A stretch of DNA of 64,000 nt, from the NCBI RefSeq assembly GCF_016026235.1, contig NZ_CP065613.1. One strand, 5' to 3'. This DNA is from Escherichia coli (GTDB lineage Bacteria > Pseudomonadota > Gammaproteobacteria > Enterobacterales > Enterobacteriaceae). The notes beneath the pieces were generated by a model. That model was not told where the DNA came from, made no database searches, and saw nothing but the letters and a program-made list of their open reading frames with translations. Of this stretch, positions 24,271-41,764 are shown piece by piece. Each line of letters starts with the position of its first letter. The stretch's first letter is position 1. A program made the translations under genes and the position numbers.

Positions 24271-24521
24271 GAGTTCCCCGCGCCAGCGGGGATAAACCGA
24301 TGACAAAAATTTGCAGGTGCTGGCAGAGGCCGAGTTCCCCGCGCCAGCGGGGATAAACCGTCAGGTGGGATGGTCAGCGCGAAACACACGCCGAGTTCCC
24401 CGCGCCAGCGGGGATAAACCGAGCGCGCAGTTATCAGCCGCGACAACATGAAAGAGTTCCCCGCGCCAGCGGGGATAAACCGCTCATATACGTTACAGCG
24501 TCGGAAATGGAGGCGAGTTCC

Positions 24522-38370: not shown

Positions 38371-39105
38371 ATGTCCAAACTCGATCTAAACGCCCTGAAC
38401 GAACTGCCGAAGGTAGATCGCATTCTGGCGCTGGCGGAAACTAACGCCCAACTGGAAAAACTGGACGCTGAAGGCCGCGTAGCTTGGGCGCTGGATAATC
38501 TGCCCGGTGAATATGTACTTTCTTCCAGCTTTGGCATTCAGGCGGCGGTGAGCCTGCATCTGGTGAATCAAATTCGCCCGGATATTCCGGTGATCCTCAC
38601 CGATACCGGTTACTTGTTCCCGGAAACCTACCGCTTTATTGACGAGTTAACGGACAAACTCAAGCTCAACCTGAAAGTGTACCGTGCTACCGAAAGCGCA
38701 GCCTGGCAGGAAGCACGCTACGGAAAACTGTGGGAACAGGGCGTTGAAGGCATTGAAAAGTACAATGACATCAACAAAGTCGAACCGATGAACCGGGCGC
38801 TGAAAGAACTTAACGCGCAAACGTGGTTTGCTGGCCTGCGCCGTGAACAATCCGGCAGCCGCGCCAATTTACCGGTGCTGGCAATTCAGCGTGGCGTATT
38901 TAAAGTGCTGCCGATTATCGACTGGGATAACCGAACGATATATCAGTATCTGCAAAAGCATGGCCTGAAATATCACCCATTATGGGACGAAGGATATTTA
39001 TCGGTGGGCGATACCCATACAACCCGTAAATGGGAACCCGGCATGGCGGAAGAAGAAACGCGTTTCTTTGGCTTAAAAAGGGAATGTGGGTTACACGAAG
39101 GGTAA
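38371..39105 (+). CDS. cysH: phosphoadenosine phosphosulfate reductase CysH
   Basis: 244 aa from [43 protein letters not shown]... Confidence 0.95.
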
Positions 39106-39368
39106 ATATTGCCGGATAAATTAAACGCCTCTGTCAGAAATGATGGGGGCGTTTTTATTTTGCGAGCAGCATTCCTGATTTTAAACGTGAACGCCGCTGG
39201 AAGAATTATCAGGTATAGAATGGCGTCGGGTGCTTGAGGCTGTCTGGCGTTAAGCATTCGCGAGGTTCCAGATGGACAAAAGCCCCAGGCGATATTTCTA
39301 TCAACCTGAGGCTCGCGTTCGAACGTAGCAATTCGAATGTTAGTCTCTTCTTTGCAGGGAGGCAAGAC

Positions 39369-39521
39369 ATGCTGACAAAATATGCCCTTGTGGCAATCAT
39401 AGTGCTGTGTTTTACAGTACTGGGATTCACGCTGATGGTAGGCGACTCGTTGTGTGAGTTGAGTATCAGAGAACGTGGTATGGAGTTTAAGGCTGTTCTC
39501 GCTTACGAATCGAAGAAGTAG
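39369..39521 (+). CDS. Hok/Gef-family type I toxin-like small membrane protein, 50 aa
   Basis: [51 protein letters not shown]-terminal TM helix plus Hok-family signature SLCEL-IR...A-LAYES-K (compare Hok ...[25 protein letters not shown], from memory); GGGAGG Shine-Dalgarno 6 nt upstream. Confidence 0.75.
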
Positions 39522-39542
39522 CCACCACGCGGGGGTAAAACC

Positions 39543-40303
39543 CCTGAGGAATCCCCAGAAAACAAGACAGGCATAGTGAGATGTGATCTAATTGATTGTG
39601 CTAACAATTTCAAGGAGATCACCACTATGCCTGCACGTTCATTATGCCAAAATTTCCTTAACAATATACTGGCCCCTTTGCATCTTTACCGTCAAAAATC
39701 ACTGATTGACGCAACTAATGCTGTAATAAATGGCGCTTCCCTCACACTTACCAGTATCGGGCGTCATTTAACCGGTACGGCATCAGTTAAAAACAAAATA
39801 AAGCGGGTGGATCGACTGTTGGGGAATCGACATTTGCAAAATGAGGTTTCCACCATTTTTCAGCGAATTACCCAAAAGATTACGCGGGGAATGTCTCGTG
39901 TTGTGATACTCATTGACTGGAGTGCTTATCATGCCTCTCGTTTTCAGCTTTTGCGGGCAAGCCTGGCATGTGACGGGCGTTCTTTACCGTTGATGAGTTG
40001 TGTCGTTCCATCATCACAGACAGCGAATGCAGATGTACATGAGCGTTTTCTGGAATCGCTTGCTGAGTGCTTTTCCCCCGGGACTGATGTCATTGTTATT
40101 ACAGATGCCGGTTTTCAGGGGCGATGGTTCCAACAGCTCCGCTCCCGTGGCTGGACCTATATTTGCCGGGTACTGGGCAATCATTATTACAATGTTGGTA
40201 ATGGCTGGGAAAAGGTGTCGGACTCAGGCACAAAAGCATCAACGACAGCAATTTATTTAGGTGAAGGCCTGCTGGGTCGAGATAAAAATGCACAACATGA
40301 AGG
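39543..40303 (+). mobile_element. IS10-like insertion sequence (copy 3), left 761 bp only, truncated by IS4
   Basis: Begins CCTGAGGAATCCCCAGAAAACAAGACAGG 22 bp after the Hok-like stop; transposase frame (MPARSL... from 39627) is identical to copy 1 through ...KNAQHEG, then IS4 begins at 40304. Confidence 0.85.
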
Positions 40304-41729
40304 TAATGCCGATCAGTTAAGGATCAGTTGACCGATCCAGTGGCTGTGTAAGAATCCGGAAACGCTCACTTGTTTCCGGATTTTTTTATGCACATTGGAC
40401 AGGCTCTTGATCTGGTATCCCGTTACGATTCTCTGCGTAACCCACTGACTTCTCTGGGGGATTACCTCGACCCCGAACTCATCTCTCGTTGCCTTGCCGA
40501 ATCAGGTACTGTAACGCTACGCAAGCGCCGTCTTCCCCTCGAAATGATGGTCTGGTGTATTGTTGGCATGGCGCTTGAGCGTAAAGAACCTCTTCACCAG
40601 ATTGTGAATCGCCTGGACATCATGCTGCCGGGCAATCGCCCCTTCGTTGCCCCCAGTGCCGTTATTCAGGCCCGCCAGCGCCTGGGAAGTGAGGCTGTCC
40701 GCCGCGTGTTCACGAAAACAGCGCAGCTCTGGCATAACGCCACGCCGCATCCGCACTGGTGCGGCCTGACCCTGCTGGCCATCGATGGTGTGTTCTGGCG
40801 CACACCGGATACACCAGAGAACGATGCAGCCTTCCCCCGCCAGACACATGCCGGGAACCCGGCGCTCTACCCGCAGGTCAAAATGGTCTGCCAGATGGAA
40901 CTGACCAGCCATCTGCTGACGGCTGCAGCCTTCGGCACGATGAAGAACAGCGAAAATGAGCTTGCTGAGCAACTTATAGAACAAACCGGCGATAACACTC
41001 TGACGTTAATGGATAAAGGTTATTACTCACTGGGACTGTTAAATGCCTGGAGCCTGGCGGGAGAACACCGCCACTGGATGATACCTCTCAGAAAGGGAGC
41101 GCAATATGAAGAGCTCAGAAAACTGGGTAAAGGCGATCATCTGGTGAAGCTGAAAACCAGCCCGCAGGCACGAAAAAAGTGGCCGGGACTGGGAAATGAA
41201 GTGACAGCCCGCCTGCTGACCGTGACGCGCAAAGGAAAAGTCTGCCATCTGCTGACGTCGATGACGGACGCCATGCGCTTCCCCGGAGGAGAAATGGCGG
41301 ATCTGTACAGTCATCGCTGGGAAATCGAACTGGGATACAGGGAGATAAAACAGACGATGCAACTGAGCAGGCTGACGCTGAGAAGTAAAAAGCCGGAGCT
41401 TGTGGAGCAAGAGCTGTGGGGTGTCTTACTGGCTTATAATCTGGTGAGATATCAGATGATTAAAATGGCGGAACATCTGAAAGGTTACTGGCCGAATCAA
41501 CTGAGTTTCTCAGAATCATGCGGAATGGTGATGAGAATGCTGATGACATTGCAGGGCGCTTCACCGGGACGTATACCGGAGCTGATGCGCGATCTTGCAA
41601 GTATGGGACAACTTGTGAAATTACCGACGAGAAGGGGAAGGGCCTTCCCGAGAGTGGTAAAGGAGAGGCCCTGGAAATACCCCACAGCCCCGAAAAAGAG
41701 CCAGTCAGTTGCTTAACTGACTGGCATTA
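40304..41729 (+). mobile_element. IS4, 1426 bp, complete, no target duplication
   Basis: Termini TAATGCCGATCAGTTAAGGATCAGTTGACCG ... CTTAACTGACTGGCATTA; length matches IS4 from memory. Left flank is IS10-like interior, right flank is lysS 3' intergenic; flanks are unrelated. Confidence 0.9.
40388..41716 (+). CDS. insG: IS4 transposase InsG
   Basis: [40 protein letters not shown]... about 442 aa. Confidence 0.9.
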
Positions 41730-41764
41730 CGACATTTGCCGGGGTTATGAGCATAACGTAATGC

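Follow-up and report, generated by a model that had tools for sequence, protein, structure and literature searches.

Hok is a membrane-inserting peptide. The hok/sok (parB) system of plasmid R1 shares with the chromosomal locus described here a Hok-family peptide, an antisense RNA over the leader and, as far as the hokX allele free of insertion sequences (IS) is concerned, a tac/fbi pairing between the mRNA ends. In R1, tac/fbi closure stabilises the full-length hok mRNA and shields it from translation and from Sok until its 3' end has been slowly trimmed; the truncated mRNA is the form that can be translated, and Sok rapidly binds the open form, which is then cleaved (PMC9841398). For chromosomal hok loci, no post-segregational killing has been shown (10.1101/2025.08.07.668861).

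Several chromosomal loci of E. coli are also close to it. The hokE/sokE locus of K-12 has the same leader architecture as hokX. Both hokC and hokE of K-12 carry IS186 in a homologous GGGG-N-CCCC hairpin, where it separates the coding sequence from fbi. They differ from our locus in lying at other chromosomal sites and in keeping, beyond the IS and with a target duplication, an fbi remnant, whereas fbi is deleted here. The remnant past IS186 contains UCAAcGCACCC in hokC, complementary to its own 5' end GGGUGCUUGA, and AGGCACC in hokE, complementary to its own 5' GGUGCCU. The name hokX was first given in E. coli B. In strain REL606 the gene occupies the same position beside cysH, encodes an identical protein and has the same leader and sokX region. 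Its post-stop hairpin is interrupted by IS421 (IS4-family), at most 1 nt from the junction found here, at which ISEc60 stands instead. The leader studied here is without IS150, unlike that of E. coli B, and its hok promoter, tac and sokX stay contiguous. A published account locates a hokX homolog between cysH and iap and describes the E. coli B copy as inactivated by an insertion element (PMC7232551).

The locus analysed here lies in a 64,000-nucleotide stretch of an E. coli genome (RefSeq assembly GCF_016026235.1, contig NZ_CP065613.1), the whole of which we call the window. It differs from R1 hok/sok in being chromosomal and in missing the 3' end with fbi. Its open reading frame is very probably hokX, which encodes the toxin of hokX/sokX, a type I toxin-antitoxin locus situated on the chromosome in the interval between cysH and the CRISPR-I region (cas3 or iap; Table 1). 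An earlier note, made from the letters, had proposed a 50-aa Hok/Gef frame at this place, with a single transmembrane helix followed by the Hok motif and a strong GGGAGG ribosome-binding site; all that it stated about the sequence proved correct. A Pfam profile search agrees, as HOK_GEF (PF01848) matches residues 5-46 of the frame with all of its 42 positions (model 1-42/42; E=3.5e-11, 43 bits), and so does the Rfam match of the leader. Residues 5-24 form a hydrophobic stretch ahead of the conserved C-terminal LCE...AY/C motif, and the GGGAGG sequence is in place upstream of the ATG. When HokX is aligned with HokE, HokC and HokA, residue 28, C29, E30 and A45 are invariant. HokE of K-12 is the closest relative of the three compared (78% identity, against 50% for HokA and 39% for HokC). 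Assignment of HokX to HokA or to PRK09738 was rejected, both scores being under the curated NCBIfam cut-offs: 57.7 bits against 89 for the HokA equivalog (NF007290) and 41 bits against 73 for the Hok subfamily PRK09738 (NF007279).

Table 1. Features of the hokX/sokX locus and its immediate neighbours; positions are those of the window.
Feature	Position	Strand	Basis and details
cysH, upstream neighbour	38371..39105	+	99.95% identical to FDAARGOS_943 cysH region; ATG and TAA checked
Terminator-like hairpin and T-run between cysH and hok unit	39123..39154	+	Terminator scan; 14-pair stem
-10-like hexamer TAGAAT, putative hok promoter	39216..39221	+	6 nt 5' of mRNA start; read from sequence
hok leader, match to Rfam RF01794 'sok'	39228..39384	+	106.7 bits against gathering 59; E=5.3e-25; model 1-157/157
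Retained putative hokX mRNA, 5' end to IS junction (~316 of ~361 nt)	39228..39543	+	Rfam model start; IS-free alleles run ~46 nt further to GCACCCTTTTTT
tac-like 5' element GGGUGCUUGAGGCU	39228..39241	+	Pairs with 3' GGUCUCCUGCACCC in IS-free fold
SokX antisense RNA gene, 58 nt	39272..39329	-	Homology to MG1655 b4701; coordinates mapped by alignment
Putative Sok promoter: -35 TTGCCT (39365-39360), 17-nt spacer, -10 TAACAT (39342-39337)	39337..39365	-	Read from sequence
12-codon upstream ORF, candidate coupling ORF	39337..39375	+	Translation; stop overlaps hok start (ATGCTGA)
hok Shine-Dalgarno GGGAGG	39357..39362	+	6-nt spacer to ATG; read from sequence
hokX coding sequence, 50 aa and stop	39369..39521	+	Pfam, annotation, likeness to HokE
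Codon TAC of Tyr46 and the G after it (UACG), candidate for A-to-I editing (Tyr to Cys)	39504..39507	+	Sequence and predicted hairpin loop
Left part of post-stop GC-rich hairpin, CGCGGGGG-TAAAA-CCC, IS target	39528..39543	+	Compared with IS-free form
ISEc60 left part, 760 bp, truncated (IS4 family, IS10-like)	39544..40303	+	759/760 identical to two full copies in window
IS4 copy, 1426 bp, cuts ISEc60 and joins lysS	40304..41729	+	Ends TAATGCC...GGCATTA; transpos_IS4_1, 304 bits

A survey of Hok homologs tested 45 of them for toxicity and found 3 to be non-toxic; a HokX variant, F15C (construct 46_982), identical to the peptide of the window at 49/50 positions, is outside these 3 (10.1101/2025.08.07.668861). 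By analogy with this variant, the HokX peptide of the window would still be toxic if expressed. The same preprint describes A-to-I editing in hokC, hokD and hokE that turns Tyr into Cys at residue 46, and reports that HokB toxicity needs a Cys29-Cys46 disulfide (10.1101/2025.08.07.668861). HokX carries Cys29, and thus it may need the same editing at its Tyr46.

Distribution counts were obtained by megablast against 5,426 complete E. coli genomes. A match to the cysH-proximal query, leader included, exists in 5,425 genomes, and 4,220 contain the hok coding end; DNA identity is 95-99% in 4,474 genomes. A 'Hok/Gef family protein' is annotated at the cysH locus in every match listed. The annotated HokX of FDAARGOS_943 and of E. 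coli B REL606 is WP_000956460.1, and the translation from the window is identical to the REL606 copy. The gene order from the end of cysH (39105) to the start of hok (39369) is the same in FDAARGOS_943, REL606, NRG857c and CP026085. It has been reported that hok and sokX adjoin cysH in 90% of 237 urological strains, the remainder having sokX alone in the manner of MG1655 (PMC12736100), and that hok sok is found in all CRISPR-I arrangements except the K-12-type cas-E2 ones (PMC3903273). The hokX/sokX pair at cysH is therefore an already described, named and widespread locus. Most genomes have an intact hok frame, and the lone sokX of K-12 is a derived minority state; the opinion of the earlier note that an intact frame at this position is notable does not stand, since 4,220 of the 5,426 genomes carry the frame and hokX has its name already. 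Beyond correct annotation the relevance of the locus is slight, as it is a known and common one in a common IS-disrupted state.

A terminator-like hairpin stands between cysH and the hok unit. Weak Rfam matches at 39063-39163, to ctRNA_p42d (24.9 against 50 bits) and Spot_42 (19.7 against 80), correspond to this cysH terminator hairpin and were set aside. The RF01794 match lies on the hok-sense strand and therefore marks the hok leader, part of which is complementary to Sok. The hok and Sok promoters were placed by homology and by eye, and both of them, like both transcript ends, are putative: a promoter scan of 39050-39700 called neither, and for the hok promoter no good -35 was seen in the sequence.

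The predicted fold of SokX (-23.7 kcal/mol, z = -4.05) places a terminator-like, GC-rich stem-loop between a single-stranded 5' tail and a UUUUGU tail. Its putative promoter, with 7 nt from the -10 to the SokX 5' end, agrees with the consensus at 8/12 positions, which is under the scan threshold. The -35 overlaps the hok Shine-Dalgarno sequence, and the whole promoter is conserved in MG1655, where sokX is kept; homology to the annotated K-12 sRNA suggests that it functions as a Sok promoter.

MG1655 annotates at this place the ncRNA sokX (b4701) alone, which agrees with the statement of the earlier note on a K-12 sokX at the cysH-proximal position. When the two loci are aligned, the leader is near-identical from 5' of the mRNA start to the hok ATG, except for the patch 39313-39328, and MG1655 SokX has the same stem-loop and tail. 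After the ATG the sequences are unrelated: the hok coding sequence of MG1655 is gone and is replaced by the region upstream of cas3 (E2 variant). Among the window, MG1655, CP026085 and NRG857c, almost all leader variation falls in these ~16 nt and the rest of the leader is invariant; the variable patch corresponds to the single-stranded 5' SokX tail and to its matching stem in hok. NZ_CP026085 ('DH5alpha') was considered as evidence of an intact K-12 hokX and rejected, because its cysH-cas3 spacing and sequence differ from those of MG1655. NZ_CP026085.1 carries hokX intact, its cas3 region does not resemble that of MG1655, and its strain label is probably wrong.

The earlier note had asked whether the regulators of the toxin are intact. 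The answer is divided: the antisense gene and the promoter-like motifs are retained, whereas the 3' fbi is lost to the IS and a mok-type reading frame could not be confidently identified. In hokC, an in-frame mokC with a Shine-Dalgarno sequence is annotated, and alignment with it revealed no counterpart in hokX of its ATG and Shine-Dalgarno sequence (GAGG, 8 nt upstream). No 70-codon out-of-frame mok, as in R1, was found at hokX either. What is available is a 12-codon upstream ORF without a Shine-Dalgarno sequence and, at 39234 and 6 nt into the mRNA, an in-frame TTG back to which the hok frame is open. To judge from these reading frames, hokX may thus differ from R1 in its translational control. 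The 12-codon ORF might stand in for mok, although as a candidate it lacks a Shine-Dalgarno sequence. Since its ATG at 39337 is complementary to the Sok -10 box as well, conservation of this ATG is uninformative. In K-12 hokE, the equivalent ATG is in frame with hokE owing to 4 extra nt. Prediction of Mok has been called ambiguous in the Hok survey (10.1101/2025.08.07.668861).

The 3' end of the module can be seen in alleles free of IS. As the reference we took CP026085, which is labelled DH5alpha but is not K-12-like at the hokX locus. Its hokX mRNA, from GGGUGC... to ...GCACCCUUUUUU, would be 361 nt long and ends GGUCUCCUGCACCC-UUUUUU. In the minimum-energy and centroid folds, nt 1-6 and 9-14 (GGGUGC, GAGGCU) pair with the 3' GGUCUC..GCACCC (-132.8 kcal/mol, z = -4.26). 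On these predicted folds, the pairing of the hokX ends corresponds to the tac/fbi closure known from R1 hok. Two IS-free contexts, one with cas3 next and the other with iap directly next (B2 strain NRG857c), are conserved right up to the T-run and then diverge, and therefore the T-run is the 3' boundary of the module.

In the window this 3' end is gone. The earlier note had seen an IS10-like element 22 bp after the hok stop, and the gap between the stop (ending at 39521) and the inverted repeat CTGAGGAATCCCC, which starts at 39544, is exactly 22 nt (CCACCACGCGGGGGTAAAACCC). The element is ISEc60 (1294 bp when complete), and two full copies of it lie at other places in the window. The ISEc60 transposase matches NCBIfam transpos_IS4_2 (360 bits) and is 36% identical to that of IS10A over 93% of its length, which makes 'IS10-like' a fair description. 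The junction lies inside the post-stop hairpin, at the slash in CGCGGGGG-TAAAA-CCC/C; the IS-free form of this hairpin, CGCGGGGGTAAAACCCCGCG, has an 8-bp stem. The missing ~46 nt (GCGTACTG...GGTCTCCTGCACCCTTTTTT, the fbi segment) have no match anywhere in the window at <=3 mismatches, which rejects the idea that fbi was merely displaced to the far side of the IS. Among the 5,426 complete genomes, only FDAARGOS_943 shares the exact hokX-ISEc60 junction. In that genome, the closest one, ISEc60 borders at its far end on a degenerate CRISPR repeat beside iap, and thus the fbi segment, the cas genes and the CRISPR-I array were lost together in an IS-associated deletion. In the predicted fold of the window transcript, the 5' end folds locally and the end pairing is absent; according to this model, the latent stable mRNA form probably cannot form here.

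We propose the following functional state, with less confidence than the identity of the locus. The hok mRNA would begin at ~39228, and SokX (~39329 to 39272, minus strand) would be made from a promoter overlapping the hok ribosome-binding site. In the IS-free allele, pairing of the 3' end with the 5' end would keep the full-length mRNA latent, as in R1. ISEc60 has entered the hairpin 22 nt past the stop, fbi has gone with the IS-associated deletion, and the toxin frame, the Shine-Dalgarno sequence, the leader, the SokX gene and its promoter-like motifs are left. The transcript of the window would then read into ISEc60 and could not take the closed latent form, and the open transcript would be immediately accessible to SokX and degraded. 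As the latent closed mRNA could not form, hokX would have lost here any delayed-killing capacity and would be held silent by SokX, like K-12 hokC and hokE and E. coli B hokX. Pedersen and Gerdes (1999) reportedly saw no post-segregational killing by chromosomal hok loci even when these were intact, and this 'inactivation' may therefore remove little. As its hok mRNA has no fbi end, the locus does not qualify as an intact toxin-antitoxin system.

We consider it unlikely that the locus is instead a working toxin-antitoxin pair, in which the hok mRNA without fbi would be constitutively open, only continuous SokX would hold Hok back, and a fall in SokX would free the toxin more quickly than in strains without the IS. 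The locus does keep the toxin frame with its Shine-Dalgarno sequence, as well as the leader and the SokX gene. The near-identical peptide (49/50) is toxic, and a comparison of the coding sequence with the NRG857c allele shows 4 synonymous changes and 1 non-synonymous change. The truncated mRNA of R1 is the translatable form, but the open form of R1 is also quickly Sok-bound and cleaved, leaving no reservoir of toxin mRNA, and the transcript here has lost its native 3' end and would continue into ISEc60. Moreover, ~800 genomes tolerate breaks in the 3' segment, and K-12 hokC and hokE, with an IS at the same hairpin, are reported to be non-functional (PMC7232551).

It is highly improbable that the selected function resides in SokX or the leader, acting on other targets or on neighbouring transcription, with hok as a dispensable passenger. 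Strains of the MG1655 type do keep the leader, sokX and the hok ATG near-identical while the coding sequence is gone; this retention can nevertheless be explained by the end point of the cas-E2 module replacement. Likewise, the excess of genomes matching the cysH-proximal query with the leader (5,425/5,426) over those with the hok coding end (4,220) would fit such a function, but the leader may persist through its closeness to the cysH terminator. The reading as a chance open frame or a decayed pseudogene other than Hok, for which one could cite the length of only 50 aa and the NCBIfam HokA and Hok-subfamily scores under the cut-offs, is practically untenable and is refuted by the full-model Pfam match (E=3.5e-11), the Rfam leader match (E=5e-25) and the 78% identity to HokE, and also by the annotation of the same protein in the inspected genomes, the coding end in 4,220 genomes and the toxic 49/50 variant.

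The loss of the hokX 3' end described above, with the toxin frame and SokX retained, has parallels at the same hairpin. The 3' segment is intact in 3,417 of the 4,220 hokX-carrying genomes and broken in ~800, a genome being called broken below 80% coverage of the 3'-segment query. The six broken genomes among the matches listed all stop in the hairpin, five of them at the C-run. The homologous hairpin is occupied by IS186A 19 nt after the stop of K-12 hokC, by IS186B 18 nt after that of K-12 hokE, by IS421 after GGGGGTAAAACCC in REL606 hokX and by ISEc60 after GCGGGGAGCAATCCC in RMDEC332 hokE. That K-12 hok loci are often IS-associated had been stated in the earlier note, and IS186 is found in the hairpins of both hokC and hokE. 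RMDEC332 (NZ_CM177021.1) has two tandem ISEc60 copies 10 bp apart (GGGATTTACC) in the hokE post-stop hairpin, at a position equivalent to the junction in the window. The hairpin is thus a recurrent IS target, hit by IS186, IS421 or ISEc60 in hokC, hokE or hokX. GC-rich hot spots at the hok locus and at CRISPR repeats, used by IS186 and by an uncharacterized IS, were reported in a 2014 mBio paper, together with IS-mediated removal of cas-E genes. ISEc60 joins IS186 and IS421 as an element targeting the hok post-stop hairpin and CRISPR repeats. A close relationship between ISEc60 and IS186/IS421 was considered as the reason for their shared target and rejected (BLASTP E=0.008 over 22 aa).

It is tempting to go further, although we regard the following as a doubtful conjecture. 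The GGGG-N5-CCCC post-stop hairpin would be a convergent landing site of unrelated IS4-family elements (IS186/IS421 and ISEc60) that also hit CRISPR repeats, and hok loci beside CRISPR-I would be recombination anchors that repeatedly delete cas genes. A truncated hokX, co-transcribed into ISEc60, might even keep a role, with the hok promoter driving the transposase or the 12-codon ORF replacing mok.

Other rearrangements were seen around the locus. The match to FDAARGOS_943 ends at 40303, where a complete IS4 cuts ISEc60. The genes lysS, prfB and recJ follow directly after IS4; in FDAARGOS_943 they lie ~150 kb from cysH, and their relative orientation is opposite to that in K-12. The ISEc60-IS4-lysS junction was present in 0/5,426 complete E. 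coli genomes. The hokX-side IS4 junction (39544-41764) looks like the breakpoint of a ~150-kb inversion between inverted IS4 copies, or like an assembly join inside IS4. At 24271-25847 there is a CRISPR array of type I-E, with four perfect 29-nt repeats at 61-bp spacing, and a full ISEc60 (24523-25816) sits inside the next CRISPR repeat with a 10-bp target duplication GCGAGTTCCC. The cas genes are absent after hokX on this side, and therefore this array appears orphaned. The second full ISEc60, at 31588-32881, is in inverted orientation, and its flanks are without a target-site duplication, which suggests another IS-mediated rearrangement.
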